A stretch of DNA of 64,000 nucleotides from Polyangium spumosum (GCF_009649845.1 NZ_WJIE01000009.1:224685-288684); one strand, 5' to 3'. Shown: positions 24,250-58,684, counted from the stretch's first letter. A program made the numbers and translations. Notes: generated from the letters alone by a model not told the origin.

Positions 24250-27200
24250 TCATTTCGACCCCACCCGAACGAACGACCCCCCCGTCCGCCCGAACGTCTC
24301 CGGCGCGTACATCTCCTCGATCCGCGTCGGCGGCGCCACGAATCGACCCACGTGGGCCGCGCGGGCGAGGTACCGATATCTCGAAATGCCCGCCGGCAAG
24401 GCGTCGATGAAATAAACGACGCGGTCGTCGCGCATTTCACGCCGCTCGGCCGGCGTCGCTTCGAGCTTCGCGAGCCAGGGGCCGCCCACGTCGCGGGCGA
24501 GGCGCAGCGGCTCGAGTCCGCCGGGGACCGGGTCTTCGAGGACGACGAAGCGGCGCGGCGCGGGCGTGACGACCTCGATCTCGCAGAGCACGACCTGCCC
24601 GGGATCAAACGCGGGCTCGCCGGAGAGAGGCGCGAGGACGGGGCCGCCGAGATCCGCGACGGGGCGGAAGGATTTTGTCACGTAAAACCCGGCGTCGAGC
24701 GGCTCGCGTGGCATGTCCTCGCGAGCGTAGCGGAGGACGGCCTCGTAATGGAGGTGGCCCCGAGACGTGGCCTCGAAGGTGAGCGGCGCGCCGCGGCTGC
24801 GGAGGAGATCGGACATCGAGACGAAGGCCGTCCGGCGGAGTTTTCCGGATTCGCCGCCGAGGCGCGCGTCCGCGAGCAGGGTATCTCCGAGGAAGACCCG
24901 CGCCTGCACGGGATCGGCGGGGGCGGGGTTTTTCTTGCGGAACGCGTCGAGCGCGAGCAGCGCCCAGCCGGCCTCGTGGGTCGTGCGGTAGGCGCCGCCG
25001 GCCCGCGCGTCCACGATGCCACGCGCGAGGCGGGCGGCGAGCGGGTGCGCGGGGTTCGTCGCGACGATCGCGAGCAGCCCCGCGGCATCGGTGCGCACGC
25101 CGGAGTCGAAATCACGAAATGGGGAGGGCCTCTCGGACGCGGCCACGAGGTGCGCCGCGGGGCCGTCGATCCGCATATTGGTTTCGAGGTCGCGGAGGAG
25201 CTCGCGGGCGGCGTCCTCGCCGCCGTGGCCCGAGACGGCGAACGCGTGGAGCAGGAGGGCGCGGGCGAACGGAGACATCCGGGCGCGCTCGTCGAAGAGG
25301 GCGCGCATGCGGGGTTCGTCGGGCCGGCGGGCCATGGCGAGGACGTCGAGCGCGAACGCGGATCGTTCGAGCGAGGAAGGGTTTGCCGCGGCGAACGGGG
25401 CCGCGAGGGCATTCGCGAGGGAACGAGCGGCGCGGTCGAGGGTCGCCTCGGGGACGGGTAGGCCGCGGCGGCGCGCCTCGTCGAGGCCCCAGAGCGCATA
25501 CGCGGTGATGTAGGGGTCTCCCTCGGCCGAGCCGGGCCAGAGGCCGAAGCTGCCGTCCTTTTGTTGATGCGTGAGCAACCTGTCCACCGCGCCCCGGAGC
25601 GCGGCGTCGACCTCGCTGCCTTTTTGCGGTCCAGGTTGTCCGGGCACGAGAGGCACGCCGAGGGAATCGGCGAGGTCGCGCAGCGCGAGGAGCGGGACCA
25701 TGCGGCTCACGGTCTGCTCGGTGCAACCATGAGGGTATTCGACGAGCTGCTCGATGCCGCCGGCGAGGCCCGAGAGCGGGGTCGAGGCGAGCGAGATCGA
25801 GAGCCCACCCGTATCCGCGCGGATCCCGGCGAGGTCCCCGAGGCGCTCGGCGACGGCCGCGGACGTCTCGCCGGTGAGGGCCGCGGTTTCGAGCGTCGTG
25901 GGCACGGAAATGTCCCTTTTGAGGTCGACGCCGTCGGTCTCCGGGCGGCCGCTCTCCTTCAATCGCGCCTCGAACGAGAGGTGGGCCTCTCCGGCGCGCT
26001 CGGCGCGGAAGGGAAAACGCAGGACGGCGGGTTCTTCGGGGTCGACCGTGGCCTCGCGGCGCATCGGGCCCGCAGGCGTGAGGCCGACTGCATTCGCGGT
26101 CACCACGGCCGAGCCGCGAGGGAGGTCGAGGGCGGAGAGGACGACGGAGGCCTCGAATCGATCTCCGGCGCGCAAAACCGCGGGGACGCTCGGGCGCGCC
26201 ATGAGGGGCTTCGAGGTGACGACCGTCTCGTCATCGGAGCCCGTGCGGTCGTCCTCGGTGACCGCGACGGCCATGAATCGATAAGCCGTGAGGCCGTCGG
26301 GCAAGGTGACGCGGCGCTTGACGCGGCCCGCGGCGTCCGTGACGAGGTCTGGCAAGAAAAACACCGTTTGTCGAAAATCGCCGCGGTGGGGGGCGACGCT
26401 GGTCGCGCCCATGCGGACCTGGGGCGGCTTCGCGCGGTGGCCCCCCGAGAAGGTGCGGAGGAGGTCGTGGCGCGCGTCTTTCGTCCAGACGCTCGGATAA
26501 CGTGTCGAATAGAGCGCAGCATGAGGCTCGGGCGTTCGGTACCACGTGAGCAAGAGCGAGCCCTCGTCCGCGGCCCACAACGTGATTTCGGCCCGCACGG
26601 GTTTGCCCGCGGCGTCTTTCGCGACGACCTCGACGTCGAGCGTCTCGCCGGGCGCCGCGTGGAGCTTGCTCGGGCGCACCTCGACGTCGAGCATGCGGGA
26701 CCGAGCGCTGACCTCGATGGACGCGCGCTGTGACTCGGATCGAGGGCCCGAGAGCGTGGTGACCGTCACGTCGGCGTTTGGCATCATGGAGAACGTGATC
26801 GGCACCTCGACGGTCGTCTTTTTGCCGTGTGGTTCGAGGGTCACGACACGCTGGTAGAGCAGGCCCTCGCGCTCCATCGTGAAGAGGGCCGGGCTCGGCT
26901 TCGAATGCGGAGATTCGACGACGAAGCGGGCGGTTTGTCCGACCCGATAGTCGCTTCGTTCGAGGCGCAGGACGAGCTCCGGCGGAAGGGGCTCGGGGGG
27001 CGGCGGCGGGGGCGGCGGAGGCGGTGGCGGAGGAGGCGGCGCCGAGGGGGCGGGCGTGGTCGTGGGCTCGAGACGAATTGAATAGGAGGCCGCGGCGCGG
27101 CGGCCTTTGCCGTCCCGGGTGGTGGCGCGGACGATGAGCTCCACCTCGTCGTCGGCCCCGACGCCGAGCGTCGGGACCTGGAACTCACAGGAGACCGGCG

Positions 27201-29835: not shown

Positions 29836-29927
29836 GAGGAGGCCGGGATCGACAGGCGGGAATGTCGAAGGTTCCCCGGCTCATTCGTCTCTGGCAGGGC
29901 GGTAAAGCGCCACGCCCGACGCAGAGG

Positions 29928-37605: not shown

Positions 37606-37727
37606 GACCCGAAGGCGGGTGTCTCATGGTGGGGACGCGGGGTCAACTTTCCGCGGGAGGCGCGGATGGTTGCACACGAAAAGTCATGCGCGCCTCACGA
37701 CGCGCTCCGACCGGAGCCCCGCACCGT

Positions 37728-38840
37728 TCACGACAATGCAGCGACCCAGTCCACGATCTGCGGCAGCCCCATCACCTCGTTCACCACGCCCGCCTTCACC
37801 GCCGCGCGCGGCATGCCGTACACGACCGCGGTCTCCTCGCTCTCGGCGATGATCGTCCCGCCGCCGGCCCGGATCGCGCGGGCGCCGGCGACGCCGTCGT
37901 CGCCCATGCCCGTGAGGATGACGCCGTAGGCCCGCGAGCCGACGGGCGCGAGGCTACGCAGGAGGCGGTCGGCGCTCGGGATGTAACGGTCGTGCTGCGA
38001 GGGAGGTCCGACACGCAGGCGGATCTCGTTCCAGCCCATGCCACTCGGGTTCTGCGAGACGACCGCCTCCATGCACATCTTGCCCGGGCAGATGAAGGCC
38101 CGGCGCGCCGTGACGAGGTCGCCGTCGACGGCCTCGGTCACGCGGATCGCGCTCTTCCTGTCGAGGCGCTCGGCGAAGGTGCGCGTGAACTTCTCCGGCA
38201 TGTGCTGGGCGATGAGGATCGCCCCGCCGAACTTCTCGGGGACGCGGCTCAGGATCTCGAGCAGCGCCGTGGGGCCGCCCGTCGAGGAGCCGATGCCCAC
38301 GATGAAGCGCGCCGCGATGTTGGCCACGGAGCGCGCGCTCGGCTGCTCGGGTTGCGGCGTCGAGAGGACCGGCGGGGTGGCCGTGGAGCGCGGGAGCGGC
38401 GGGATGGCGCTGTTTCGTTGGCTCATGGCGGCGAGCGGGCGCAGGTACCGGACGAGGAGGACCTTCTGCAAAATCTCGCGGCGCAAGGAGGTGTCGGGCG
38501 CGAGCCTTTGCGTGGGTTTGGCGACGAAGTCGACGGCGCCGAGCTCGAGCGCCTTGAAGACGTTCTCCTTGTGGCTGTAGCTCGACACCACGATCACCGG
38601 CGTCGGCTGCCGGACCATGAGGATGCGGAGGAAGGTGAAGCCGTCCATCCGCGGCATCTCGAGGTCGAGCGTGATGACGTCCGGCTTGAGGCTCAAGGCG
38701 AGGCGCAGCGCCTCCTCCCCGTCGCCCGCCTTGCCGACGACCTCGACCTCGTCGCTGCCGGCGAGGATGTCCGCGATGTTCCTGCGGTTGTAGGCGGAGT
38801 CGTCGACGACGAGCACCCGCAGCGGACCGGTCTTCACCAC
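37728..38840 (-). CDS. cheB: chemotaxis response regulator protein-glutamate methylesterase CheB
   Basis: N-terminal receiver domain (LRVLVVDDSAYNRRNI...DVITLDLEMPRMDG). C-terminal methylesterase (GSSTGGPTALLEIL, AQHMP, GMGDDG). Confidence 0.9.
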   Translation of the reverse strand: MVKTGPLRVLVVDDSAYNRRNIADILAGSDEVEVVGKAGDGEEALRLALSLKPDVITLDLEMPRMDGFTFLRILMVRQPTPVIVVSSYSHKENVFKALELGAVDFVAKPTQRLAPDTSLRREILQKVLLVRYLRPLAAMSQRNSAIPPLPRSTATPPVLSTPQPEQPSARSVANIAARFIVGIGSSTGGPTALLEILSRVPEKFGGAILIAQHMPEKFTRTFAERLDRKSAIRVTEAVDGDLVTARRAFICPGKMCMEAVVSQNPSGMGWNEIRLRVGPPSQHDRYIPSADRLLRSLAPVGSRAYGVILTGMGDDGVAGARAIRAGGGTIIAESEETAVVYGMPRAAVKAGVVNEVMGLPQIVDWVAALS

Positions 38841-38874
38841 CGTTTCACCTCTGCTGACTCCCTTGCCGAAGTGC

Positions 38875-39777
38875 TCATGGTTTCCCCGATCCGAGCGTCC
38901 CGCCGTCCAGACCCCCCGGGGCGAACCGCGAGGCCGTGATGGGCTTCCGATAGACGAGATCGTCGCGCAAATGGACGAGCTCGAACGCGGTCGACACGTT
39001 GAGGAGCGACTCCGAGTGGCCGAGGAGCAAGAAGCCGCCCGGGAGGAGCCGGTCGTAAAACATGTCGATCACGCGGCGCCGCGAGACGTCGTCGAAGTAG
39101 ATGAGGACGTTGCGGCAGAAGATGATGTCGACGCGGCCGACGACCGAGGCACGGACGGGATCGAGCAGGTTCAGGTGGCCGAAATGGCACCAGGCCCGGA
39201 GGTCGTCCTGCACGTGCATGCCGTCGGGCTTCTCGACGAAGTACTTGCGCTTCAAGTCGGCAGGGATCGCGCGGAACGACGAGGTGCCGTAGACGCCGCG
39301 GCGCGCGTGGGCCACGCAGCGCCGGGAGATGTCGCTGCCGAAGATGCGGAGGTCGCGGCGCCCGGACAAACCGGCCTCCCTCGCCGTGATGGCGATGGAG
39401 TAGACCTCCTCGCCCGTCGAGCAGCCAGCGCTCCAGATGGAGAGGCTCTCGCGGGAGAGCGGCGGGCGGCGGAGCATGGGGAAGAGCTCGTTGCGGAGCG
39501 CCGTGAGCTGATAGTCCTCGCGATAAAAGTAGGTCTCGTTGATCGTGACGAGATCGAGCGCCTCGTCGAGCTCGGCCCGGCCCCGGTCCGGCGAGCGGAG
39601 GAGCTGGTAATACTCGCCGAACGAGTGCAAGCCATGCACGCTGAGGCGCTCGCGCAAGCGCCGCTCGATGACGGGGCGCTGCTCGGGGCTCAGCGCGATG
39701 CCGCAATGCTGGTTGATGAGATCCCGCAAGAGGCGGAACTCGTCCGGCGCGAGGCGGATCTCATCCGGGAAGCGCAT
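38875..39777 (-). CDS. cheR: chemotaxis protein methyltransferase CheR
   Basis: ETYFYREDYQLTAL, IWSAGCSTGEEVYSIAI and FCRNVLIYF are CheR SAM-methyltransferase motifs. The start ATG at 39777..39775 shares one base with the stop of the upstream HEAT gene (TGATG). Confidence 0.9.
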   Translation of the reverse strand: MRFPDEIRLAPDEFRLLRDLINQHCGIALSPEQRPVIERRLRERLSVHGLHSFGEYYQLLRSPDRGRAELDEALDLVTINETYFYREDYQLTALRNELFPMLRRPPLSRESLSIWSAGCSTGEEVYSIAITAREAGLSGRRDLRIFGSDISRRCVAHARRGVYGTSSFRAIPADLKRKYFVEKPDGMHVQDDLRAWCHFGHLNLLDPVRASVVGRVDIIFCRNVLIYFDDVSRRRVIDMFYDRLLPGGFLLLGHSESLLNVSTAFELVHLRDDLVYRKPITASRFAPGGLDGGTLGSGKP

Positions 39778-41999
39778 CACGACCCGAAGAAGCCCCTTTC
39801 CCCGCGCCAGCGGATCGACGAGAGCGCACCCTCGAGGGTGTCGCGCACGTCCCGATCGAGCTCGTGCGAAGCGCGCTGCGCGAGGCGCTCGCGCAAGGTC
39901 GTGTTGTCGCTCGCCGCGATCGTCTCGGCCGCGAGGAGCCGGACGTCGGGCGAAGGATGGTCGAGGCAACGAAGCAGCGCCTCCCCCTCGGGGCCACTCG
40001 TCTCGAGCTTGAGCATCGCCGCCTTGACGACCGCGGCGTCGGGGTGATCGAGCGCCGCGACGAGCGCCGCTTGCCTGCCTGCCGCGCCCCAGGGCAGGCG
40101 CCCGATGGACTCGGCAGCCGCGATCGCCACGACGGCCTCGGCCTCGCGGGCGAGGGGCGCGAGGGCCTCGATGAGCGCGTCCGCGGCGCGCTCCGCGGCC
40201 TCGGGCGGGATCGTGGAGAGGGCCTCGCCGAGCGCGCGGATCGCGGTGGCCACGAGCTCGGCGTCCATCGAGCGGCCCGCGATGTCGAGGATGGTGCGCA
40301 GGCTCGGCGTCGCGTTCGTCTCGGCCGAGGCCTCGCGCCGCCGCGCCGCCGCGCCGAGGTAGCCGAGCGCGCGCGCCGCGGCGAGCTGGACCTCGCGCTC
40401 CTCGTCGGCGAGCGCGAGCGAAAGGACGTCGAGCGCCGAGTCGCCGCCGATCTCGGCGACGGCGCCGATCGCCGCACGACGCGTGCGCACGTCCTCGGCC
40501 GCAGCCGCGCGCGCGAGGAAGCCGAGGTCGAAGGGAGACGGCGGCGGGCTCGAGGGGCTACGCGTGGCCGCGAGGGCGCCGAGGATGATCGCGGCGGCGA
40601 AGGCCTCGTCGCCGGGCTCGCTGCCGGCGCGGGTGACGAGGGCGTCGCCGAGCGCGCGCGCGGCCTTCTCGTGGCGGGTCGCGAGCGAGGCGAGCGCGCC
40701 CTCGGCGGCGTGGGCGACGGGGCGGAGCGGCGAGGCGACGAGGCGCGCGGCGAGCGCGAGGTCCTCCTCGGTGCCGAGCTTCGAGAGGGCGAAGAGGGCG
40801 CTCGTGGCGACGCGGCGCTCTTCGTCGAGCACGGCCGCGCGCAGGGCCTCGAGCAGCGCCGTGGGCCGCTCGGGCGCGCCGGGCGCGAGGGCGATCGCCG
40901 CGGCGACCTCGATGAGCGCGGCGCGCACGTCGGCCGCGAGCGGCGTCACGCCTTTCTCGGGGGCGATACGCGCGACGAGGCCGGGCAGCGCGGCAGGCCC
41001 GAGGAGGAAGAGCGCACGTTCGGCCTGTTCGGTGAAGGTCTCCTCGGCGAGCGCGAGGGCGGCCGCGTCGACGACGCCGGGCGCGCGCGCGACCGCGGCG
41101 AGCAGGAGCGCCATGGCGCGGTGGTGCGGGGGGTCGGTGCCCTCGGCCATGGCGACGCGCACGAGGCGCTCGCCGAGCTCGGGGCCTTCGGCCGCGAGGG
41201 CGCCCGTGACGGCGGGCAGGAGCGGTCCGTCGGCGAGGCGCGCGAGCGCGCTGATGGCCTGCATGAAGGTGCCGCCGCGCGCCTTGTGGAGCATGCGGGC
41301 GAGCGCCGGGGCGGCCGCGGGGCTCTCGGAGGTGGCGGCGGCCGAGAGGGCCGCGCCGCGCAGGGAGGGGTGCTCGAGCAGCGGCGCGAGGCGCTCCCAG
41401 GGGATCACGGCGCCGAGGGCGTTGAGGCCTTCGAGGGCGGCGAGCTTGGCGAAGGGATCGGCGCTGTCGAGGCAGCGGAAGAGGAGGCGCTGGACCTCGA
41501 CGGGGGCGATCGGCCCGAGCTGCGCGATGGCCTCGACGGCGCCCTGGCGGACGTTCTCGTCGGCGTCGCGCAGGGCGCGCTCGAGGACGGCGAGGGCGTG
41601 GGGATCTCGCGTGAAGCCGAGGGCCTGGACGGCGAGCTTGCGGCCGTCGGCGTCGAGGCGCGCGAGCGACGCTTCGAGGGGCGCGGTGGCGGCGCTGCCG
41701 CAGCTCGCGAGGACCTCGATCGCGGCGTTGCGCAGGCCGACGTTGTCGCAGGGCTCGAAGGTCTTGACCATCGCCGCGATGAGGCTCGGCGCGGGGATGA
41801 ACGCGCGCGCCGCGTAGGTGGCCTCCTTGCGCACGCGCCAGTCGGTGTCGCCGAGCGCGCGGACGAGGAGCGGCAGCGCGTCGTAGAGCGGTAGCTCGGC
41901 GGCGAGGGCGGTGGCCTGGCGGCGCTCCTCGGCGTCCGCGGCGTCGAGGGCGGCTTCGATCAGCGCAGGCGAGACGGTGCGGGTCGAAGGGGGGTTCAC
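39777..41999 (-). CDS. HEAT-repeat (PBS-lyase-like) protein embedded in che operon (Cpc7-like)
   Basis: About 740 aa of repeated helix pairs with DxxVRxxAxxALG-type HEAT signatures (DWRVRKEATYAA, NVRQGAVEAIAQLG, DVRTRRAAIGAVAEIG, EVQLAAARALGYLG, DVRLLAAETIAAS). Start reassigned to GTG 41999, 10 nt after the cheW stop. The first 118 codons of the track ORF overlap cheW and are Ser/Arg-rich. Confidence 0.75.
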   Translation of the reverse strand: MNPPSTRTVSPALIEAALDAADAEERRQATALAAELPLYDALPLLVRALGDTDWRVRKEATYAARAFIPAPSLIAAMVKTFEPCDNVGLRNAAIEVLASCGSAATAPLEASLARLDADGRKLAVQALGFTRDPHALAVLERALRDADENVRQGAVEAIAQLGPIAPVEVQRLLFRCLDSADPFAKLAALEGLNALGAVIPWERLAPLLEHPSLRGAALSAAATSESPAAAPALARMLHKARGGTFMQAISALARLADGPLLPAVTGALAAEGPELGERLVRVAMAEGTDPPHHRAMALLLAAVARAPGVVDAAALALAEETFTEQAERALFLLGPAALPGLVARIAPEKGVTPLAADVRAALIEVAAAIALAPGAPERPTALLEALRAAVLDEERRVATSALFALSKLGTEEDLALAARLVASPLRPVAHAAEGALASLATRHEKAARALGDALVTRAGSEPGDEAFAAAIILGALAATRSPSSPPPSPFDLGFLARAAAAEDVRTRRAAIGAVAEIGGDSALDVLSLALADEEREVQLAAARALGYLGAAARRREASAETNATPSLRTILDIAGRSMDAELVATAIRALGEALSTIPPEAAERAADALIEALAPLAREAEAVVAIAAAESIGRLPWGAAGRQAALVAALDHPDAAVVKAAMLKLETSGPEGEALLRCLDHPSPDVRLLAAETIAASDNTTLRERLAQRASHELDRDVRDTLEGALSSIRWRGERGFFGS

Positions 42000-42009
42000 G
42001 GCGCGCTCC

Positions 42010-42516
42010 TCACAGGTCGTCGATCGGCGGAAGGACGTCGGCGATGTCGTCGACGAGCTCGGTGAACCGCTTCGTGTCGAGCACGAAGACGAGCAGGCCG
42101 TTGTGGTTCGTGACGCCCGAGATGCCGCGCAGATCGCGGCCGCCGCCGACGGGGGGCGTCGGCCGGATCTCGTCGGCGCCCGTGCCGAAGACCTCGGAGA
42201 CGGCGTCGACGACGAGGCCCACCATGCGCGCGCCGGCGTCGACGAGGATCCACTTCGTCGAGCGCGTCGGCGACGTCGGCGGCAGGCCGAAGCGGATGCG
42301 CAGATCGATGACGGGCACCACGTCGCCGCGGTGATCGGCCACGCCCGAGACATCGGGGGGCGTGTGCGGGAGCGGCGTGACTGGCAAGGGGTTCACGATC
42401 TCGCGCACCTGGCCGATCCCGATCGCGTAGTGGACGTCGCCGACGACGAAGCCGACGAGGCTCTTCTGGGGATCGGCGCGGTGTCTCTGGCCATAGTCGG
42501 GCATCGCTTTCGTCAT
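42010..42516 (-). CDS. cheW: chemotaxis coupling protein CheW
   Basis: The 168-aa product has the CheW fold: VGFVVGDVHYAIGIGQVREI, VPVIDLRIRFGL, GLVVDAVSEV, GLLVFVLD. Confidence 0.85.
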   Translation of the reverse strand: MTKAMPDYGQRHRADPQKSLVGFVVGDVHYAIGIGQVREIVNPLPVTPLPHTPPDVSGVADHRGDVVPVIDLRIRFGLPPTSPTRSTKWILVDAGARMVGLVVDAVSEVFGTGADEIRPTPPVGGGRDLRGISGVTNHNGLLVFVLDTKRFTELVDDIADVLPPIDDL

Positions 42517-42537
42517 CTCCGAACGGCGACCTCGGGG

Positions 42538-43107
42538 TCAGGACGCGAGCACCACCTTCAAGTCGAGGAGGATGATCACGGACGCGTCGTGGCGCAGGCC
42601 GCTGGCGTTCCTCGCCTGGGCCTTCGCGTCCGCCTGGTTCTGCGCCTGCGCGGGGCGCGCGATGCCGGCGATGTAACCGGCGACCTCGCCTCCGAGCGCG
42701 GACGCGGTCTGCTCGATGTCGCTGTCGGCGAGGCGGTAGACCTGGAGGACCTCGTCGACGAAGAGCCCGAGCGTCTCGACGCCCATCGGATCGACGAGCA
42801 GGATGCGCGCCTTGCTCGTGACGGGCCCCTCGGAGAGGCGGAGGCGGCGCCTGAGATCGAGCACCGTGACGAGCTGGCCGCGGACGCTGATGATGCCCAT
42901 GATCGACGAGGGCGCGCGCGGCACCGGGGTGATCGGGCGGAGCGTCAGGATCTCGCGGATGAGCGCGACGGGCGCGGCGTAGACGTTCTCGGCGAGGCGG
43001 AAGGCGAGGTACTTGGTGCCCTGTCCGCGGTCGCGGAGCTGCTTCTTGTGCTTCTGGCCCGCGACGACGACGGCGGAGTCGCTGCGGCGAGCGAGGTTAG
43101 AAGCCAT
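42538..43107 (-). CDS. cheW: chemotaxis coupling protein CheW (second copy)
   Basis: YLAFRLAENVYAAPVALIREI, LVTVLDLRRRL, LGLFVDEVLQV, VIILLDL. The start overlaps the cheA stop. Confidence 0.85.
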   Translation of the reverse strand: MASNLARRSDSAVVVAGQKHKKQLRDRGQGTKYLAFRLAENVYAAPVALIREILTLRPITPVPRAPSSIMGIISVRGQLVTVLDLRRRLRLSEGPVTSKARILLVDPMGVETLGLFVDEVLQVYRLADSDIEQTASALGGEVAGYIAGIARPAQAQNQADAKAQARNASGLRHDASVIILLDLKVVLAS

Positions 43108-45511
43108 GGGTGCCTCCGTGGGTCATCCGAGCGCGCTCGGAGTGGGCGAACATCTCCTCGACGAGCGCGGGCGCGTCGAGCACGAGCGCGATGCGTTGAT
43201 CCGCGAGCTGCGTCGCGCCCGCGAAGCCGGCGATGTTCTTCAGCGAGGGGCCGAAGCCCTTGATCACGACGTCCTGCTGCCCGACGAGGGAGTCGACGAC
43301 GAGGCCGAGCCTCCGGGTGCCGACGGCCGTGACGACCACGAACTTGCGCTTGGACCGCGGCGCGAGCGCGTTCTTCATGGCGTTGCTCACCGTCGACGTC
43401 TGCGCGGGCCGGTAGGGGAAGGCCGGCGAGTAGCCCTGCTGCCGCAGAGGCTCGCCGCGGAGCGACGAGCGCGCCCCCGGCGCGATCTGGCTGAGCTGCG
43501 GGGCGTCGAGGCCGAAGCCGTCGGTGCCGCTCACCTCGCTCGTGTCGGCGAGCCCGAAGAGCCGCGCGAGGTAGCAGAGCTGGAGCGTGTTGCCGCGCAG
43601 CGTGACGGCGTCGCGCCCGTCGATCACGCGCACCGCGGAGAGGTCGAGCCACACGGCCTCCTGCACGTTGGCGAGCGGGATCGCGAACTGCTGATCGCTG
43701 ACCTTCACGATGAGCGCCTTCAGGATCGCGAGCGTGATCGGCAGCGTCACCGTGAACTTGGTGCCGATGCTGATCTCGCTCTGCACGTCGATGACGCCGC
43801 CGAGCTTCGAGATGTTCGTCTTCACGACGTCCATGCCGACGCCGCGCCCGCTGATCTCGCTCACCGACGTCTTCGTGGACAGGCCGGGCACGAAGATGAG
43901 GTTCAACACCTCGCGGCGGCTCATCGTCCGCGCGTCCTCCGGCCCCACGAGGCCCATCCGGATCGCCTTCTCGAGCAGGCGCTCCATCTCGATGCCCTTG
44001 CCGTCGTCCTCGATCTCGATGACGACGTGGTTGCCCTTCTGGAAGGCGTTCAGCGCGATCGTCCCGATCGCGGGCTTGCCCATGGCCTCGCGCGCGTCGC
44101 GATCCTCGATGCCGTGATCGATCGCGTTGCGCATCATGTGCATGAGCGGATCGCTGAGCTCCTCGACGATGAGCTTGTCGACGTTGGTCTCCGCGCCCGT
44201 GATGACGAGGTTCACCTGCTTGCCCGCCTGGCGGCTGATCTGGCGCGCGACGCGGGCGAGCTTGTCGAAGACCTGCCCGAGCGGCACCATGCGCACCTCG
44301 AGGATGCCGTCGCGCAGGCGCTTGACGTTGTGCCCGAAGTCGCGCTGGAGCCTCCGGAGGTTGTTCTTCACCTCGTGGTTCGCCTGCGCGTCGCGCATCT
44401 TCTCGAGCAGCCGATCGAGCTCCGTCCGCACGATCGACAGCTCGCCGACGTAGTTCATCAGGACGTCGAGCTTCTGGATGTCGACGCGCACCGTCTGCGC
44501 GACGCTCTTGATCGTGCCGAGCTCCTGCGCCTTCGGCGGGATGCTCGCGCTCGTGTCGAGGTGCGGCGCGGGGAAGGGGTGCGGCGCCGTCATGTCGAGC
44601 GGCGCGCTGCCCATCGGCGGCATCGGGCTCGGGGGCTCGCTCGGCGCGACCGGCGGCGGCGAGGGCGTGGGCGTGGGGATGTTCGTGTGCGAGAACGTCG
44701 ACGCCGACGAGGCCGAGGCCGTCGACGAGGTGGGCGGGGGCGGGGGCATGGCCGCATGCGAGGGCCCTCCGCCCTGCCGCGGCAGCTCCTCGACCTCCAC
44801 GCCGAGGTGGTTGAGCGCGTTTCGCAGCGTCGTCGAAGGCGCGCGCGAGCCCATCAGGATCTCGAGCGTGATCGAGTCGATGTCGTCGGTGTCGCTCGCG
44901 GGCAGGTACGTGATGATGTCGCCGTGCGGCTTCGCGGTCGCCTTGAGCTCGTCGAGCCCTTGATCGATCGTCGCGAGCTGGAACCGCACGCGCAGCCGGT
45001 AGAGCGTGTTGCCCTGCGCGATGTTCGTCTTGAGCTTGTGCTCCTCGAACTCCGTGAGCACCGCGAGCAGGTTCGGGTCGATGATGGGCCCGCCGCCGCC
45101 GCCGCCCGCGCCTGCGCCCGCGCCTCGATCGAGCTGCGCGAGCAGCTTGTCGAGCTCGGGGATCGGCTGATCGCGGCTCTCCTTCTCGGCCTGGAGCAGC
45201 TTGCCGTAGAGCTGCACCGAGGCGAAGAGCAGGTCGAGCACGGGGGCCGTGACGTCGACCTTGCCGAGGCGCAGATCGTCGAGCAGCTCCTCGAGCTTGT
45301 GCGAGAGGCTCGACATCCGCGTCGCGCCGAAGAGGCCCGCCAGGCCCTTCAGCGTGTGCACCGCGCGGAAGACGTCGTTGATGAGGTCCGGGTCGACGTG
45401 GCCGGATTTCTGGGCCTCGTCGAGCGCGAGCAGATCTCGCCCGAGCCCCTCGACGATCTCCTGCGCCTCGGAGAAGAACTCCTCGCGCGCGCGTTCGCTC
45501 TCGCTCGTCAA
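43097..45511 (-). CDS. cheA: chemotaxis histidine kinase CheA
   Basis: HPt: FRAVHTLKGLAGLFG. Ala/Pro/Ser-rich linker. Dimerisation and HATPase regions (DHGIEDRD, GRGVGMDVV). C-terminal CheW-like domain. The ATG overlaps the cheY stop (ATGA). Confidence 0.9.
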   Translation of the reverse strand: MTSESERAREEFFSEAQEIVEGLGRDLLALDEAQKSGHVDPDLINDVFRAVHTLKGLAGLFGATRMSSLSHKLEELLDDLRLGKVDVTAPVLDLLFASVQLYGKLLQAEKESRDQPIPELDKLLAQLDRGAGAGAGGGGGGPIIDPNLLAVLTEFEEHKLKTNIAQGNTLYRLRVRFQLATIDQGLDELKATAKPHGDIITYLPASDTDDIDSITLEILMGSRAPSTTLRNALNHLGVEVEELPRQGGGPSHAAMPPPPPTSSTASASSASTFSHTNIPTPTPSPPPVAPSEPPSPMPPMGSAPLDMTAPHPFPAPHLDTSASIPPKAQELGTIKSVAQTVRVDIQKLDVLMNYVGELSIVRTELDRLLEKMRDAQANHEVKNNLRRLQRDFGHNVKRLRDGILEVRMVPLGQVFDKLARVARQISRQAGKQVNLVITGAETNVDKLIVEELSDPLMHMMRNAIDHGIEDRDAREAMGKPAIGTIALNAFQKGNHVVIEIEDDGKGIEMERLLEKAIRMGLVGPEDARTMSRREVLNLIFVPGLSTKTSVSEISGRGVGMDVVKTNISKLGGVIDVQSEISIGTKFTVTLPITLAILKALIVKVSDQQFAIPLANVQEAVWLDLSAVRVIDGRDAVTLRGNTLQLCYLARLFGLADTSEVSGTDGFGLDAPQLSQIAPGARSSLRGEPLRQQGYSPAFPYRPAQTSTVSNAMKNALAPRSKRKFVVVTAVGTRRLGLVVDSLVGQQDVVIKGFGPSLKNIAGFAGATQLADQRIALVLDAPALVEEMFAHSERARMTHGGTHGF

Positions 45512-45954
45512 CGCGACCCCTCGCTGGTCTCGGCCGGGGGAAGGGAGCTGCGCGCTTGCAGGATCGTCGTGATGGCGCGCTGCAGCGCCTCCACCGTGAA
45601 GGGCTTCGCGAGGAACGCGTCGGCGCCGAGCGCGAGGCCGCGCGCCCGATCCTTCTCGGAGGACTGCGTCGAGATGATGATCGTGGCGACCTTGCGGTGA
45701 CGCTCGCTGTCGCGCATGAACCGCAGGAGCTCGAGCCCGTTGATGTCCGGCATGTTGATGTCGGTGATCACGAGGTCGTAGTGCCCGCGCGGCAGGAGGC
45801 GCAACGCGTCGAACCCGCTGGCAGCCTCGACGACCTCCACCTCGCCTTGCGCGTCGTCCGGGCTCGTCGCGAAGAGCCCCGGCGTTTCCTCGAGCGCCGC
45901 GCGGATGAACGCCCGGAACGCAGAGGAGTCCTCGACGACCAGGATACGAGCCAT
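45508..45954 (-). CDS. cheY: CheY-like single-domain response regulator
   Basis: MARILVVEDSSAFRAFI...DLVITDINMPDINGLELL...LAKPF contains the receiver D-D-D-T-K residues. It is the first gene of the che operon. Confidence 0.85.
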   Translation of the reverse strand: MARILVVEDSSAFRAFIRAALEETPGLFATSPDDAQGEVEVVEAASGFDALRLLPRGHYDLVITDINMPDINGLELLRFMRDSERHRKVATIIISTQSSEKDRARGLALGADAFLAKPFTVEALQRAITTILQARSSLPPAETSEGSR

Positions 45955-46281
45955 GTCGGGAGGTTAGCGGAAACGCCTCTCGATCAGGAGGTTTTTGGGC
46001 GACCTCCCCGGCCCCGGGGGGCCGCTGCCGTGTCGTGAAGGGGCAGGCGCCGATTTCTTGCCCGTATTTGCGCCTTCGCCGGGGGGCCGCGCGGGGGAAA
46101 CAGGCCTTTCACGCGCCCCGTGGGCCGGTGTGGCGCTCGTGGTCACGGCGACGCCCATGCGGCCGCGAATTGACAGGCCCGCCGTGGTCCTGCCCTAATG
46201 CGTTCCGTGAACGACAGAAACAAGGCCGCGCTCGGCGCGGGTATCTCTTCCCATGCCCGGCCCAAGTGTGGGCTCCGCCTG

Positions 46282-47301
46282 ATGCTCTTCTCGCTGCTCG
46301 CGCTCATGCTCGTCGCGTGCGGGGGCGGCTTGAACGTCCGGCTGATCAACTCCGCGCAGAAGAAGCCCAACAACGTCTGGGTCTTCTTCACGGTCGACGC
46401 GGGCAAGGACAAGCCCGTCGGCGGCCTCGTCGCCGAGGACTTCAAGATCTACGAGGACGGCGAGCTCGTCTCGGCCTTCGAGAGCAAGCAGACCATCCAG
46501 AACCCGGAGGTCGCGGCCGTCATGTACACGATGTTGCTCGTGGACATGAGCGGCTCGGTCACCGAGTCCGGGCAGGCGGACGCGCTCGTCGACGCGGCCA
46601 AGGCCTTCGCGGATCGTGTCGGCAAGACGCAGAAGGTCGGCGTGTACGGCTTCGACGGCTCCGAGAAGATCTTCTCGGTCGTGCCCTTCACCGAGGCGGC
46701 AGGATCGGTCGAGGGGGGCCTCGAGGGGCTGCGCAGCTACAAGCCGAAGGACCCGTCGACGAACCTGCACGGCGCCGTCGTCGAGGGCCTCGCGACGCTC
46801 AAGAAGGAGCTCGACAAGGACAAGCGCCCGCTCAAGTTCGGCTCCCTCGTCGTCTTCTCGGACGGCACGGATCGCGCCGCGCGCGTGACCCGCGACGAGA
46901 TGAAGGACGCGATGGACAAGGAGGAGTACGAGAACTACGAGATCTACGCGATCGGCGTCGGCGCCGAGATCGGCAAGGCGAAGCTCGACGAGATCGGGCG
47001 CGACGGGACCGAGCTCGCGACGGATCAGGCGAAGGTCAAGGAGGCCTTCGACAGGATGGCCGCGCGCATCGAGTCGCACATGAAGCGCTTTTATCTGCTC
47101 TCGTACTGCACGCCGGCCCGCAAGGGTGAGCACGAGGTCACCATCGAGGCCATCAGCAAGAAGGACCCCGAGGGCTCGGGCTCCGTCGAGTACAAGTTCA
47201 ACGCCGACGGCTTCGGGCCTCCGCCGGACTGCAACCCCAACGCGCCGCCGGCCTTCGAGCTGAAGGAGCCGGCGCCGAAGCCCGCCGAGGCCGCCAAGTA
47301 A
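46282..47301 (+). CDS. von Willebrand factor type A (VWA) domain lipoprotein
   Basis: Lipobox LMLVACGG. MIDAS motif LLVDMSGSV. VWA fold elements (VGVYGFDGSE, VVFSDGTD). ATG at 46282 is preferred over 46198. Confidence 0.75.
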   Translation: MLFSLLALMLVACGGGLNVRLINSAQKKPNNVWVFFTVDAGKDKPVGGLVAEDFKIYEDGELVSAFESKQTIQNPEVAAVMYTMLLVDMSGSVTESGQADALVDAAKAFADRVGKTQKVGVYGFDGSEKIFSVVPFTEAAGSVEGGLEGLRSYKPKDPSTNLHGAVVEGLATLKKELDKDKRPLKFGSLVVFSDGTDRAARVTRDEMKDAMDKEEYENYEIYAIGVGAEIGKAKLDEIGRDGTELATDQAKVKEAFDRMAARIESHMKRFYLLSYCTPARKGEHEVTIEAISKKDPEGSGSVEYKFNADGFGPPPDCNPNAPPAFELKEPAPKPAEAAK

Positions 47302-47327
47302 CACGCAAACGGTTCGTCGACACGAAA

Positions 47328-47368
47328 GGCCCGCGCGCATCCTGTATGCTCGCGGGCCTCGGCTTTTT
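47328..47368 (+). terminator. rho-independent terminator after VWA lipoprotein gene
   Basis: Perfect 8-bp GC stem: GGCCCGCG 47328-47335 pairs with CGCGGGCC 47351-47358, with a 15-nt loop. It is followed by TCGGCTTTTTCG. Confidence 0.7.
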
Positions 47369-47383
47369 CGAGGGGAACCACGC

Positions 47384-47776
47384 ATGGCGGTTTCGAAGGT
47401 GCTGCTGGTGGACGACGAGCCGCATATCCGGCGGATCGGAGAGCTCAGCCTGAAGGGCGTCGGCAAGTGGAAGGTCGTGCTCGCGTCCTCGGGGCACGAA
47501 GCGCTCGAGGCCGCGGCGCGCGAAGCGCCGGACGTGATCCTGCTCGACGTGATGATGCCGGGCATGGACGGGCAGGAGACACTCGTCGAGCTCCGCACGC
47601 GCGAGGAAACAGCCGCGATCCCGGTCATCTTCATGACCGCGAAGGTGCAGAAGCACGAGGTCGACAGGTACCGCGAGCTCGGCGCCGCGGGCGTCATCCC
47701 GAAGCCCTTCGACCCGATGTCGCTGCCCGGACAGGTCCTCGACATCCTCGCCTCGTACGTGGGCGCACGCTCTTGA
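47384..47776 (+). CDS. single-domain response regulator (receiver only)
   Basis: VLLVDDEPHIRRI...DVILLDVMMPGMDGQETL...IFMTAK...IPKPF. No output domain. Confidence 0.85.
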   Translation: MAVSKVLLVDDEPHIRRIGELSLKGVGKWKVVLASSGHEALEAAAREAPDVILLDVMMPGMDGQETLVELRTREETAAIPVIFMTAKVQKHEVDRYRELGAAGVIPKPFDPMSLPGQVLDILASYVGARS

Positions 47777-47813
47777 TCGTGGCTCGCCACGTGCAAGGGA
47801 GAGGGGCGGAGAT

Positions 47814-49124
47814 TTGATGAAAGCAGCCCCTCCCCCGAGCGACGAGATCGAGCGCCTCGTGGCGCTCAGCGAAGCGGCGATCCTCGACACGCCCCCCGAG
47901 CCTGCCTTCGATGATCTCACGCGCCTCGCGGCCGCGATCTGCCGCACGCCGATCGCGCTGGTCTCGCTCGTCGATCGCGAGCGCCAGTGGTTCAAGTCGA
48001 AGGTCGGGCTCGACGCGAGCGAGACGCCGCGCGAGGTGGCCTTCTGCGCGCACGCGATCCTCGGCGAGCAGCTCTTCCTCGTCCCCGACGCGCACGAGGA
48101 CGCGAGATTTGCAGACAACCCGCTCGTGACCGGCGGGCCTCACGTGCGCTTCTACGCGGGCGCGCCGCTCGCGACCGCGGACGGTCACAACGTCGGCACC
48201 CTCTGCGTCATCGACCACGGGCCGCGGCAGCTCGACGACGCGCAGCGGGCCGCGCTCACGGCCCTCGCGCGCCAGGTGGCCGCGCAGATCGACCTCCGCC
48301 GCGCGAACGGGCGGCTCGCGAAGCTCAACGGCGAGCTCGTGGCGCGGGCGCGCGAGGCGCAGGCGCTGGCCGAGGAGCGCAAGGCCGTCGAGCGGGTCAA
48401 GGACGAGTTCGTCTCGACCGTCTCGCACGAGCTCCGGACGCCGCTCACCTCGATCCGCGGCGCGCTCGGCCTGCTCGAAGGCGGCGTGCTCGGCCCCCTG
48501 CCCGACGGGGCGATGGAGCTCGTCCAGATCGCCCGCACGAACACCGACCGGCTCGTGCGGCTCGTGAACGACATCCTCGATCTCGAGAAGATCGTGGCGG
48601 GCAAGCTCGAGCTTCACCCGAAGCGCGTCGACGTGCGGCGGCTCGTCTCGGGCCTCGTCGACAGCCTCGGCCCCGTGGCCTCGGAGGCCAGGGTCGAGCT
48701 CTTCGTGGACGTGCGGGGCGAGATCGAGGTCGTGGTGGATGAGGACCGCATCGCTCAGGTGCTCACGAACCTGATGTCGAATGCCCTCAAGTTCTCGCCC
48801 CCCGAGGCGCGGGTCGAGCTCGGCGTGGAGGCGAAGGCCGACGGGCGCGTGTGCTTCGCGGTCCGGGACCGCGGCCCCGGGATCGCGGAGGCGGACCTCG
48901 GGCGGCTCTTCAAAAGGTTCGAACAGCTCGAGGGCGAGGGCCGGCGCGAGCAGCGCGGCACGGGCCTCGGGCTCGCGATCTCGAAGGCGATCGTGGAGCA
49001 ACACGGCGGGGCGATCGGCGTCGCCTCGAAGCTCGGGCAAGGCAGCACGTTCTGGTTCGAGTTGCCCTCGCCAAATGGAGAGGCGCGTCGAAATCCCGGG
49101 GCCCCTGCCGTCGGTTTCGCTTAA
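47814..49124 (+). CDS. GAF sensor histidine kinase
   Basis: N-terminal GAF (ICRTPIALVSLVDRERQWFKSKVGLD...FYAGAPL). HisKA: FVSTVSHELRTPLTSIRGALGLL. HATPase: GTGLGLAISKAIVEQHGGAIGV. Confidence 0.85.
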   Translation: MMKAAPPPSDEIERLVALSEAAILDTPPEPAFDDLTRLAAAICRTPIALVSLVDRERQWFKSKVGLDASETPREVAFCAHAILGEQLFLVPDAHEDARFADNPLVTGGPHVRFYAGAPLATADGHNVGTLCVIDHGPRQLDDAQRAALTALARQVAAQIDLRRANGRLAKLNGELVARAREAQALAEERKAVERVKDEFVSTVSHELRTPLTSIRGALGLLEGGVLGPLPDGAMELVQIARTNTDRLVRLVNDILDLEKIVAGKLELHPKRVDVRRLVSGLVDSLGPVASEARVELFVDVRGEIEVVVDEDRIAQVLTNLMSNALKFSPPEARVELGVEAKADGRVCFAVRDRGPGIAEADLGRLFKRFEQLEGEGRREQRGTGLGLAISKAIVEQHGGAIGVASKLGQGSTFWFELPSPNGEARRNPGAPAVGFA

Positions 49125-49495: not shown

Positions 49496-50893
49496 TCAAG
49501 CCCAGCCGGCGCGCTCGACGATGCCCTCGATCGTGTCGACGAGGCGCCGCAGATCGATCGGCTTGGCCACGAACTCGCGCACGCCGAGGACGGCGAACTT
49601 CCAGCGCTCCTGCGGGCCGACGCGGCCGCTGAGGACGACGACGCGGGCGTGATCGCCGCGCGGCAGGGCGCGCAGGTGCGAGAGCGTGTCCACGCCGTCG
49701 AGGTCGGGCATGTCGAGGTCGAGCAGGACGAGATCGGGGGGCTCTTCGCGCGCGGCCTCGAGCGCGGCCTGGCCCGAGCGCGCGACGCGGATCCGCATCG
49801 ATCGGCCCTTCATGGCGAGCTCGGCGGCCTTGGCGGCGAACTTGCCGAACGCGGGGTCGTCGTCGACCGTGAGCACGCGGATCGATCGCGTGGCGCTCTC
49901 GGCGGGTTGCCTGACGCTCGCGGGCGGCGGCGCGCTCGGCGACGCCTGGGCCTTGGGTGAGCCGGCGAGGACGAGGTCCCGCGCGAAGGCGCCGCAGCTC
50001 GTGTATCGATCGGCGGGGTTTTTCGCGAGGGCGCGCGAGAGCACGGCGTCGAAGGGCGCGAGCTCGGGGCGCACCGACGAGGCGAGGGGCACGGGCGCGC
50101 TGAAGTGCGCGTGCAGCAGCCGCACGAGGTCACGCTGGAGGTACGGCGTGCGCCCGGTGAGCAGCTCGAACGCGACACATCCGAGCGCGTAGACGTCGCT
50201 CCACGGGCCCACGGGTATCCCCTCGCCGGCGAGCCCTGCTTGCTCCGGCGCCATGTAGACCGGCGTGCCCTCGATCGTCTCGGGCCTCGACGCGGAGTGC
50301 TGCTGCGCGAGGCCGAAGTCGATGAGCACGGGCCTGCCGGTGTCCTCCTCGATGACGATGTTGCCCGGCTTGACGTCGCGATGGACGATGCCCCGGCCGT
50401 GCGCGGCGTCGAGGCCGTCGGCGATGCGCCCGAGGATGGTGATCGCGCGGTGCTGGGGCAAGGCGCTCTGGCGCTGCCGGTACTCGTCGAGGATCGCCTC
50501 GAGCGAGCGGCCCTCGACGTACTCCATGGCGAAGAAGTACGAGGAGCCGTGTCGGCCGAACGCGTAGACCTGCACGACGTGTTGATCACGCAGCGTCGCG
50601 AGCGCCTTCGCTTCCTGCTGGAGCCGCTGCTCGGCGAGCGCGTCGTCCCACGTCGGGGCGATGAGCTTCAGGGCGACCGTGCGATCGAGCCAGGTGTCGC
50701 GCGCGCGGTAGACGACCCCCATGCCGCCGCGCCCGAGCTCCTTTTCGACGCGATAGGTCCCGGCCACGATCATGCCCGGCTCGGGCGTGATCGAGGGGCG
50801 CGCGGGGGGATCGATCACGTTGCCGGATTCGTCGATCGACGAGGTGTCGCTCAAGGCTTCGCCGGATCTGTCAGGCGACGAAGGTGTGCTCAT
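49496..50893 (-). CDS. Ser/Thr protein kinase fused to C-terminal receiver (REC) domain
   Basis: Kinase motifs: GRGGMGVVYRA, VALKLI, HRDVKPGNIVI, DFGLAQ, GTPVYMAPE. C-terminal REC: IRVLTVDDDP...DLVLLDLDMPDLDGVDTL...FVAKP. ATG at 50893 is preferred over the ORF-track start at 51010. The 3' end is 3 nt from the HPt stop (convergent). Confidence 0.85.
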   Translation of the reverse strand: MSTPSSPDRSGEALSDTSSIDESGNVIDPPARPSITPEPGMIVAGTYRVEKELGRGGMGVVYRARDTWLDRTVALKLIAPTWDDALAEQRLQQEAKALATLRDQHVVQVYAFGRHGSSYFFAMEYVEGRSLEAILDEYRQRQSALPQHRAITILGRIADGLDAAHGRGIVHRDVKPGNIVIEEDTGRPVLIDFGLAQQHSASRPETIEGTPVYMAPEQAGLAGEGIPVGPWSDVYALGCVAFELLTGRTPYLQRDLVRLLHAHFSAPVPLASSVRPELAPFDAVLSRALAKNPADRYTSCGAFARDLVLAGSPKAQASPSAPPPASVRQPAESATRSIRVLTVDDDPAFGKFAAKAAELAMKGRSMRIRVARSGQAALEAAREEPPDLVLLDLDMPDLDGVDTLSHLRALPRGDHARVVVLSGRVGPQERWKFAVLGVREFVAKPIDLRRLVDTIEGIVERAGWA

Positions 50894-50939
50894 GATCGCT
50901 TGCCTGCGGAGGCCGAGAAGTGCCGGTCCATTTTCATTT

Positions 50940-52199
50940 TTAGGTCGGTAGCTTCGGCGTCGCGAGGGAAAACGTTCGTTCGGCGCGTCGCGCGCCTGCG
51001 AGCTGACCACAGGCGCCGCCGACGTCGCGGCCGCGGGGCCTGCGGACGAGCGTCGTCACGCCGTGCGACGAGAGCCGCGCGACGAAGGCGTCGAGCCGCT
51101 CCTGCGTGGGCGGGCGCAGCGAGGGATCGGGCCCGGGGTTGCACGGGATCACGTTCACGCGGCAGCGGATCGGGCGGACGTAGGCCGCGAGCAGGTCGGC
51201 GTCCTCGGGCGCGTCGTTCCAGCGGTCGAAGAGCACGTACTCGAAGAGCACACGGCGGCCGGGCGGGAGCGCGCCTACGATCGCGTCGCGCAGCGCCGCG
51301 AGCGGGAAACGCGTGTTGATGGGCATGATCGTTCGGCGCCGCTCGTCGTCCGGCGCGTTGAGGCTCACGGCGAGCTCGGCGCGCGTGCCGGCGAAAAACG
51401 CGGGCAGCTTGTCGGCGACGCCCACGGTGCTCACGGTGACGCGTGAGGGCGCGAAGCCGAAGGCGCGATCGTCGGTGAGCAGGCGGAGCGCGCGCAGCAC
51501 CTCGGGCAGGTTGTCGAAGGGCTCGCCCATGCCCATGAAGACGAGGTTCGAGAGGGGCGGCGCGCCGCCGGCCTCGTGAAAGATCGCGCGGGCGAGGCGG
51601 ACCTGGTCGATGATCTCGCCCGCGGCGAGCTGGCGCTCGAGCCCGAGCCGGCCCGTCTCGCAGAACGCGCAGGCGCGCGCGCAGCCGACCTGGCTCGAGA
51701 TGCAGAGCGTGGTGCGGCCGGGGCCGGGGATGAGGACGGACTCGACGAGGGCGCCGTCGGCCCGCGCGCGAAATAGCAGCCGGATCGTGCCGTCCTCCGC
51801 GGGCGCGCGCTCGTGCAGCGTGAGGGCCGGCGCGGGATCGAGGGCGTCGAGCGCCTCGTGGGCCCAGGCGCCGATGCCGAGGTCGGCGAAGGTCGAGCGG
51901 CCCCAGGGGATCTCTGCGGCGTCGTCGCGGGAGAAGGCGTGCCGCACGATCCGGGCGGCGGCCGAGCGAGCGGCCGAAGGTGATCCGCCGCGCGCGACCA
52001 GGCGCTCGGTGAGTGAACCTGCGTCGTGCGAGGCGAGCAGCGTGTCGCCGCGGGCGGCGCGCGAGACGAGCGGGATCCCCCCGCGCTTGTCGAGAACGTC
52101 CACGGCCGTTCTGTTACTACGGCGAGGGCCGGCGCGGCAGCCCGCGTGTCCCAGCCGGATCGACCAGGCTGCCCGAGCCTCCCTCCGCAGCTTATCCAC
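50940..52199 (-). CDS. rlmN: 23S rRNA/tRNA adenine C2-methyltransferase RlmN (radical SAM)
   Basis: CISSQVGCARACAFCETG (CxxxCxxC radical-SAM cluster), GMGEP, NVIPCNP and the C-terminal ACGQLAG are RlmN/Cfr signatures. The real start is probably internal (N-terminus Arg-rich). Confidence 0.85.
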   Translation of the reverse strand: MDKLRREARAAWSIRLGHAGCRAGPRRSNRTAVDVLDKRGGIPLVSRAARGDTLLASHDAGSLTERLVARGGSPSAARSAAARIVRHAFSRDDAAEIPWGRSTFADLGIGAWAHEALDALDPAPALTLHERAPAEDGTIRLLFRARADGALVESVLIPGPGRTTLCISSQVGCARACAFCETGRLGLERQLAAGEIIDQVRLARAIFHEAGGAPPLSNLVFMGMGEPFDNLPEVLRALRLLTDDRAFGFAPSRVTVSTVGVADKLPAFFAGTRAELAVSLNAPDDERRRTIMPINTRFPLAALRDAIVGALPPGRRVLFEYVLFDRWNDAPEDADLLAAYVRPIRCRVNVIPCNPGPDPSLRPPTQERLDAFVARLSSHGVTTLVRRPRGRDVGGACGQLAGARRAERTFSLATPKLPT

Positions 52200-58566: not shown

Positions 58567-58684
58567 CGGATGCTCTCCGGCTCCCTCCATCCGGAAGACC
58601 GATCGTAGTAGCCACGCGCTTCCCTCGGACAGCCGTCGCGTAAAACTTGTTTTCCCCGGGCTCCCTGGGCAAACGTCCCCGGTC

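Follow-up and report, generated by a model that had tools for sequence, protein, structure and literature searches.

The minus strand of a 64,000-nt stretch of the Polyangium spumosum genome (GCF_009649845.1 NZ_WJIE01000009.1:224685-288684; hereafter the window, with positions counted from its first nucleotide) carries a chemosensory operon at positions 45954-37728, with the gene order cheY-cheA-cheW-cheW-HEAT-cheR-cheB. The G+C content of the window is ~70%, hence long spurious open reading frames (ORFs) are plentiful; genes were called by a filter on third-position GC combined with Pfam searches, which yielded seven co-directional genes. An earlier analysis made without database searches (the sequence-only reading) had proposed the same order, with a ~740-aa HEAT-repeat protein encoded between the second cheW and cheR, and Pfam supports it for all seven ORFs.

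The first gene, cheY (45508..45954; minus strand, as are all the genes of the operon), encodes a single-domain response regulator of 148 aa (Response_reg, 5.6e-24), whose translation exhibits an acidic pocket together with the phospho-acceptor Asp (within VITDINMPD) and the conserved Lys (within LAKPF). The product of cheA (43097..45511, TTG start; 804 aa) comprises the Hpt, H-kinase_dim, HATPase_c and CheW domains; Pfam found no receiver domain in it, which makes it a non-hybrid kinase. It possesses the HTLKG phosphorylation motif, a CheW-like P5 domain interrupted by an insertion, and a Pro/Ser/Ala-rich linker at about residues 240-335, which the sequence-only reading had pointed out together with the presence of two cheW genes and which, like them, is evident in the translation. 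The first copy of cheW (42538..43107) encodes 189 aa (CheW, 1.5e-28) and the second (42010..42516) 168 aa (CheW, 3.4e-34), the latter being one of those products of the operon that are best conserved among related loci. The HEAT-repeat gene (39777..41999, GTG start) encodes 740 aa, in which Pfam reports HEAT_2 (2.2e-34) in six stretches. The product of cheR (38875..39777; 300 aa) contains only CheR_N and CheR (8e-54) and no TPR domain according to Pfam, and its S-adenosylmethionine-binding motifs are intact in the alignment with CheR1 of P. aeruginosa (5xly). The last gene, cheB (37728..38840), encodes 370 aa (REC and CheB_methylest, 5e-55), and all positions aligned with the motifs of 1a2o, which we take to be those of Asp56, Ser164, His190 and Asp286 in CheB numbering, are conserved. 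Thus, as judged from alignments and translations, the catalytic motifs of CheA, CheY, CheR and CheB are intact.

The genes are tightly packed. The junction of cheY and cheA is a 4-nt overlap that had been given as ATGA but reads TTGA, in keeping with the TTG start codon of cheA. The overlap between cheA and the first cheW (11 nt) and the TGATG at the HEAT/cheR junction, where the HEAT stop codon and the cheR ATG share 1 nt, were read directly from the sequence as previously described; the gaps between the second cheW and the HEAT gene and between cheR and cheB are 10 nt and 34 nt, respectively.

A gene for a methyl-accepting chemotaxis protein (MCP) was sought in several ways. The tblastn search of the window with the signalling domain of Tsr revealed none (best E-value about 5), using a query that had been validated in the PDB by its end-to-end match to 1QU7 and by matches to Thermotoga MCPs at 1e-23, and Pfam detected no MCPsignal domain (PF00015) in 37 predicted ORFs of the window, which include most of the long ones. 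The same Tsr query found no MCP within 10 kb of the operon in 83 related loci (see below), and the precomputed Pfam annotations of L001-L003 and L084-L087 contain none either, so the claim of the sequence-only reading that the cluster encodes the methylation and demethylation enzymes and no receptor holds for the window and for the flanks of the relatives analysed. An MCP hidden inside the HEAT ORF was considered as well and ruled out by Pfam, which reported HEAT/Arm families only and no MCP domain, by the structural model and fold search described below, and by a scan for methylation sites. An adjacent pair of Glu/Gln residues is the hallmark of such sites in MCPs, and no conserved pair exists in the HEAT family: there are no adjacent positions that are both E or Q in at least 70% of 421 aligned sequences. 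The absence of an MCP domain from the transcript thus extends to the HEAT ORF itself.

The AlphaFold2 model of the HEAT protein, built on an alignment of 33 sequences, has a mean predicted local distance difference test score of 91.3 and contains about 40 helices of 8-26 residues. According to this model the protein is a pure alpha-solenoid, formed from end to end by tandem bi-helical HEAT repeats; it exhibits no long coiled coil and no antiparallel hairpin tip for the binding of CheW or of the P5 domain of CheA. Foldseek reported CAND1, karyopherin-beta2 and SF3B1 as the best structural matches, and by sequence the protein is nearest to consensus alphaRep/HEAT proteins of the PDB, with CpcE/F-type lyases as weak matches; searches of NCBIfam and of PDB sequences returned only generic HEAT, alphaRep, NblB or CpcE/F-type matches. 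The repeats belong to the HEAT_2/HEAT_PBS class (PF13646). The family comprises 174 representatives at 50% identity (E<=1e-30, from 1.84 billion representatives searched), mostly of 660-800 aa and aligned end to end, which at such similar lengths indicates a discrete family and not generic repeat noise. The protein from the window is 89-92% identical to its counterparts in Polyangium species and 43-55% identical to Sorangium and Minicystis proteins. In the 421-sequence alignment surface conservation is highest within the N-terminal 230 residues, and the most conserved peptide of the family is the N-terminal signature DxDWRVR[KR]E. The evolutionary rate of the HEAT protein is about double that of the Che proteins, with a mean distance of 1.13 compared with about 0.55. 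The region of the HEAT gene (40001-42000) also has the highest G+C content of the window (0.778 vs about 0.70 elsewhere), which fits the Ala/Arg/Leu/Gly-rich composition of the repeats.

When one genome per species was scanned with DxDWRVR[KR]E, 376 genomes proved to encode a relative; the best 80 of these 376 were kept, all of them from Polyangia. The proteins of the window were mapped onto 83 related loci, and the order cheY-cheA-cheW-cheW-HEAT-cheR-cheB was consistent in 83/83: it is complete and exact in 57, incomplete yet consistent in 14, and the remaining 12 deviate only because of a neighbouring gene inside the scoring window or the boundary of a high-scoring segment pair. The same seven-gene order was found from gene calls in four further loci (L084-L087), and precomputed Pfam annotations of gene calls confirm it in seven genomes with different flanks, Sandaracinus included. 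The carriers that could be identified are Polyangium, Sorangium, Minicystis, Sandaracinus and metagenome-assembled genomes (MAGs), again all Polyangia. The HEAT gene is an integral member of the operon, kept in synteny with the che genes in the loci analysed, so that neither observation named as a refutation in the sequence-only reading (an MCP within the transcript or inside the HEAT ORF, or a HEAT gene without conserved synteny) was made. One protein from a Minicystis sp. MAG (P0083, 1114 aa), deposited as a CheR family methyltransferase, was considered as a natural fusion of HEAT and CheR and rejected: its BLASTP similarity to the HEAT protein of M. rosea ends at residue 581, and the rest of the HEAT C-terminus is found in another reading frame of the locus (L003), with the shift at about 11720-11735. 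Given that the C-terminus lies in the other frame of a long-read MAG, the fusion is a frameshift artefact, probably caused by a long-read indel error, and hence probably a mis-annotation in the database.

The HEAT gene and cheR are also close to each other in the relatives, with a median distance from the HEAT stop codon to the cheR start codon of 5 nt (range -4 to 46, in 55 measurable loci). Translational coupling of the two genes, as suggested previously, is compatible with the TGATG overlap; however, all junctions of the operon are tight, so that the short distance is not specific to this pair. A more specific association was found by the mirror-tree analysis of 42 non-redundant loci, in which partial correlations were calculated controlling for the other five proteins. 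The partial correlation of HEAT and CheR (0.60) is the highest in the matrix, each of the two proteins is the other's best partner, and CheR ranks first for HEAT in 477/500 bootstraps. The second value, 0.42, belongs to CheA-CheW, a known pair that serves as an internal control, and the other adjacent gene pairs are near 0; the value for HEAT and CheY is 0.03. When ranks were used instead of distances, CheR still came first (0.42).

Among published systems, the closest to the operon of P. spumosum is the MCP-less Che8 cluster of Myxococcus xanthus and the group beta clusters, as judged by gene order, protein sizes and published statements. Che8 is made up of MXAN_4759 (CheY8b, 124 aa), MXAN_4758 (CheA8, 862 aa, non-hybrid), MXAN_4757 (CheW8b, 188 aa), MXAN_4756 (CheW8a, 174 aa), MXAN_4753 (CheR8, 290 aa, no TPR), MXAN_4752 (CheB8, 345 aa) and MXAN_4751 (CheY8a, 126 aa); MXAN_4755 and MXAN_4754, which lie between CheW8a and CheR8, are not listed, and no Mcp8 is given (Moine 2014, PMC3945109). 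The two systems thus share the order cheY-cheA-cheW-cheW-[non-che gene(s)]-cheR-cheB, the lack of an mcp gene, a non-hybrid CheA and a CheR without TPR, and their proteins are of similar sizes (Che8 vs window: CheW, 188/174 vs 189/168 aa; CheR, 290 vs 300 aa; CheB, 345 vs 370 aa; CheA, 862 vs 804 aa). Group beta clusters (cheA, cheW, cheB and cheR, no mcp) are conserved in delta-proteobacteria, with Geobacter, M. xanthus, Stigmatella, Anaeromyxobacter and Plesiocystis as carriers (Tran et al., PMC2577667); according to Thomas et al. 2008 (PMC2330069), conservation of che8 extends to Anaeromyxobacter and G. sulfurreducens, and Che8 of C. coralloides is likewise without an MCP (2018 BMC Genomics, PMC6194562). 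The operon is therefore a member of an already described MCP-less class and not a new kind of system. M. xanthus Che7, to which the sequence-only reading had assigned it, has a single CheW (CheW7) and its own Mcp7 (PMC3945109), so that Che8/beta-type is the better label, with which the two cheW genes, the missing mcp, the order and the sizes agree.

A member of group beta studied in Geobacter is instructive as to where the receptors could be encoded. Cluster 5 of G. sulfurreducens (GSU2212-2223) belongs to group beta and holds EsnB and EsnC; its CheW (GSU2220) and CheA (GSU2222) bind the separately encoded GAF-containing MCP EsnA (GSU1704) in two-hybrid assays and share a phenotype with it, and the published data suggest the diguanylate cyclase EsnD as the output of the Esn pathway (PMC5585712). 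The window lacks the extra cheY genes of the Geobacter cluster as well as its ATPase gene GSU2221. In M. xanthus, Mcp7, McpB and McpJ were assigned to Che7/Che8 (PMC3945109), and CheA8 helps to phosphorylate the orphan regulator MXAN_4468 (PMC9040617). In Sandaracinus-type loci (L085, 14155-15471; L087, 14071-15359) the operon extends past cheB with a ~300-aa protein composed of a coiled coil and a GAF domain and with a second single-domain response regulator, an arrangement reminiscent of CheY8a at the end of the M. xanthus Che8 cluster and of the GAF sensor that EsnA has in Geobacter; this extension is found in Sandaracinus-type loci only and is absent in the window and in the Polyangium and Sorangium loci.

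We consider it somewhat more probable than its negation (about 0.55) that the seven-gene operon encodes a non-flagellar, MCP-less Che8/beta pathway that works with receptors encoded in trans and with the HEAT protein as an adaptor. The two parts of this proposal differ in strength. The first, a Che8-type operon with receptors in trans, is likely: with CheR and CheB both intact and both conserved throughout the family, a substrate for them must exist, and in view of the EsnA precedent receptors encoded elsewhere are the most economical one. The sequence-only reading had left a choice between such receptors and methylation of a non-MCP target; the former has the precedent in Geobacter (PMC5585712), while the HEAT protein as a substrate of CheR and CheB is unsupported because its family has no conserved Glx-Glx pair. 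In this pathway CheA and the two CheW proteins would assemble on at least one chemoreceptor from another genomic locus, CheA would phosphorylate CheY (the output) and CheB, and CheR and CheB would methylate and demethylate the trans-encoded receptors. The second part is tentative, and we put it forward only as a possibility: the co-variation of HEAT and CheR favours a role in the adaptation branch, where the HEAT solenoid could be an accessory adaptor by which CheR, and perhaps CheB, is bound or brought into position on the array, and thus a dedicated CheR adaptor and the split equivalent of the TPR domain of other CheR proteins.

Fusions of CheR with TPR are typical of pathways with alternative functions (PMC3447774), and in M. 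xanthus TPR is carried by FrzF, CheR3, CheR4 and CheR6 (PMC3945109). As in CheR-TPR fusions such as FrzF and WspC, an alpha-solenoid is tied to CheR in the operon of P. spumosum, here by invariant adjacency, by translational coupling and by co-variation. Unlike in those fusions, the solenoid consists of HEAT and not of TPR repeats and forms a polypeptide of its own (740 aa), with its gene upstream of cheR, instead of a C-terminal domain; the functional analogy is one that we infer, in which the HEAT protein would be a separate-chain counterpart of the TPR domain that many other pathways with alternative functions have fused to their CheR.

Several points weigh against the proposed pathway. In this genome the receptor search covered the 64-kb window, and no candidate receptor in trans was identified. 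The likeness to MXAN_4751-4759 and GSU2212-2223 is one of gene order, protein sizes and published statements and not of sequence; MXAN_4754/4755 and GSU2216 are candidate counterparts of the HEAT gene by their position; and the window has no second cheY trailing cheB, as CheY8a does in M. xanthus Che8. No named Myxococcus or Geobacter protein is found among the matches of the HEAT family, which by name is seen only in Polyangia (in the best 80 of 376 genomes and in the family matches). As for the adaptor, the mirror-tree reveals covariation of rates and not binding, its signal depends on the method, with CheY as a close second (0.36) in the rank-based version, and the sole apparent HEAT-CheR fusion, P0083, is the artefact described above.

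The alternative that fares best, though we regard it as unlikely, has CheY of the operon acting on the HEAT protein as its output target, as CheY7 reportedly does on Cpc7 in M. xanthus. The solenoid would be bound by CheY~P and pass the signal on, and CheR and CheB would act on receptors in trans independently of it. An interaction of CheY7 with the HEAT-repeat protein Cpc7 of M. xanthus was reportedly described by Darnell in 2014. In Halobacterium, motor switching requires the HEAT_PBS protein OE2401F, which has CheY, CheD and CheC2 among its interaction partners (PMC2666748). The repeats of the HEAT protein of the operon are of the same HEAT_2/HEAT_PBS class, and in the rank-based mirror-tree CheY stands behind CheR alone (0.36), which leaves the mirror-tree result for CheY ambiguous. 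OE2401F, an essential partner of Che proteins, is like the protein studied here of the HEAT_PBS class and encoded in a che region; unlike it, OE2401F is archaeal, functions in archaellum-based taxis and also binds Fla proteins. No orthology is implied, since repeat proteins of this kind match each other non-specifically. Against HEAT as the target of CheY stand the distance-based correlation (0.03, as opposed to 0.60 for CheR), the position of the gene between cheW and cheR and not at the end of the operon, and the length of 740 aa, much larger than what we take to be the size of Cpc7. Moreover, published data on Che8-type systems suggest different outputs, namely MXAN_4468 (PMC9040617) and EsnD (PMC5585712).

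We find it improbable that the operon is a degenerate Che7, from which mcp7 and des7 have been lost and in which the HEAT gene has moved. In Che7 of M. xanthus, the desaturase gene des7 presumably lies between mcp and cheR, and the HEAT gene cpc7 presumably follows cheB. The operon resembles Che7 in that it starts with cheY-cheA-cheW and ends with cheR-cheB, and in its link to a HEAT-type protein and to an alternative cellular function; it differs in having no mcp, two cheW genes and the HEAT gene between cheW and cheR, and Pfam detected no desaturase domain in any of its ORFs. Che7 is indeed associated with a HEAT-repeat protein (PMC9040617), as is the Che8-type cluster of the window, and Che7 and Che8 form one phylogenetic group (Group 1) in M. 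xanthus, yet they are separate clusters (PMC3945109). The possession of two cheW genes as in Che8 instead of the one of Che7, the lack of intermediates (the seven-gene order is found in every Polyangium, Sorangium, Minicystis and Sandaracinus locus analysed), and the fact that M. xanthus keeps Che7 apart from a Che8 that is already MCP-less all speak against such a degeneration.

Finally, a truly receptor-less system, in which CheW and CheA would have the HEAT solenoid in place of an MCP as their platform and this solenoid would be what CheR and CheB modify or regulate, fits the absence of an MCP in or near the operon in 83/83 loci, the intactness of CheR and CheB, which must act on something, and the co-variation of HEAT with CheR, but is very improbable given that the 421-sequence alignment has no conserved adjacent Glu/Gln, that the model has neither a long antiparallel coiled coil nor a hairpin tip for CheW and the P5 domain of CheA, that in Geobacter the homologous CheW and CheA have an ordinary MCP from another locus as their binding partner (PMC5585712) and that Mcp7, McpB and McpJ were assigned to Che7/Che8 (PMC3945109). 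The milder proposal, of a HEAT adaptor for CheR, is more likely than this one.

Both flanks of the operon are non-chemosensory, as the sequence-only reading had stated. Upstream of cheY lies a divergent gene for a VWA protein with the lipobox LVAC, and the 243-nt divergent intergenic region between the two genes (45955..46197) is, by its position, the presumed promoter region, in which a consensus scan found no sigma-70-like site. Downstream of cheB, on the same strand, there is a gene for an SLT+LysM (MltD-like) protein, located beyond a G+C-rich terminator-like hairpin with a T-rich tail (37688..37705, minus strand) that begins 22 nt past the cheB stop codon. The hairpin, found by a consensus scan, is to be regarded as a pattern match only, because the scanned region gave 9 terminator-like sites versus 2.7 expected. 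The MltD-like gene was considered as a member of the operon, which is unlikely in view of the hairpin and of an opposite-strand Uma2 gene that intervenes in P. mundeleinium: a gene for a Uma2-family endonuclease (L001 14261-14914, minus strand) lies there between cheB and the MltD-like gene, and the window has none at this position.

The VWA lipoprotein gene opens a run of genes divergent from the che operon (46198-49124, plus strand), followed by genes for a response regulator and a GAF-HisKA-HATPase kinase. P. mundeleinium has the counterpart run (L001 2537-5814; VWA lipoprotein, response regulator and kinase), followed by a gene for a single-domain Hpt protein. The VWA neighbour is retained in Polyangium and Sorangium and not in other Polyangiaceae, and the run could be a linked phosphorelay or a mere neighbour. 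Beyond it, at 49496-51010 (minus strand), a Ser/Thr protein kinase with a C-terminal receiver (Pkinase and Response_reg) is encoded, which is adjacent to the che genes in P. mundeleinium as well (L001 1129-2547). Elsewhere in the window, the gene at 6135-9884 (minus strand) encodes a protein of 1249 aa with an N-terminal Ser/Thr kinase and an AAA_16 ATPase and lies in a second stretch of very high G+C (0.77), and the product of the gene at 24250-29880 (minus strand; 1876 aa) is a bacterial alpha-2-macroglobulin with MG domains, a bait region, TED and bMG10. At 58228-59785 an ORF with a XisI domain (minus strand) overlaps a YhgA-like Transposase_31 ORF (plus strand); probably one of these ORFs was called wrongly or with a wrong extent, and the region may be a remnant of a mobile element.

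MCP-less Che8/beta clusters have been known since 2007-2008, and, apart from the phosphorylation of MXAN_4468, the function of Che8 in M. xanthus is still described as not yet identified (PMC9040617). What is new here is a single HEAT family as an invariant component of the cluster across Polyangia, the peptide DxDWRVR[KR]E as a diagnostic motif by which members of this family can be found, and an exploratory co-evolution signal that links HEAT to CheR. Of all partners, CheR is the one whose divergence HEAT follows most closely, which offers a concrete hypothesis for an uncharacterised component. The receptor-less alternative, if true, would mean a receptor-independent chemosensory system conserved across Polyangia; if, on the other hand, the HEAT protein is an adaptor, it would be analogous both to the TPR domain in CheR-TPR proteins and to the pentapeptide tether of enteric receptors.

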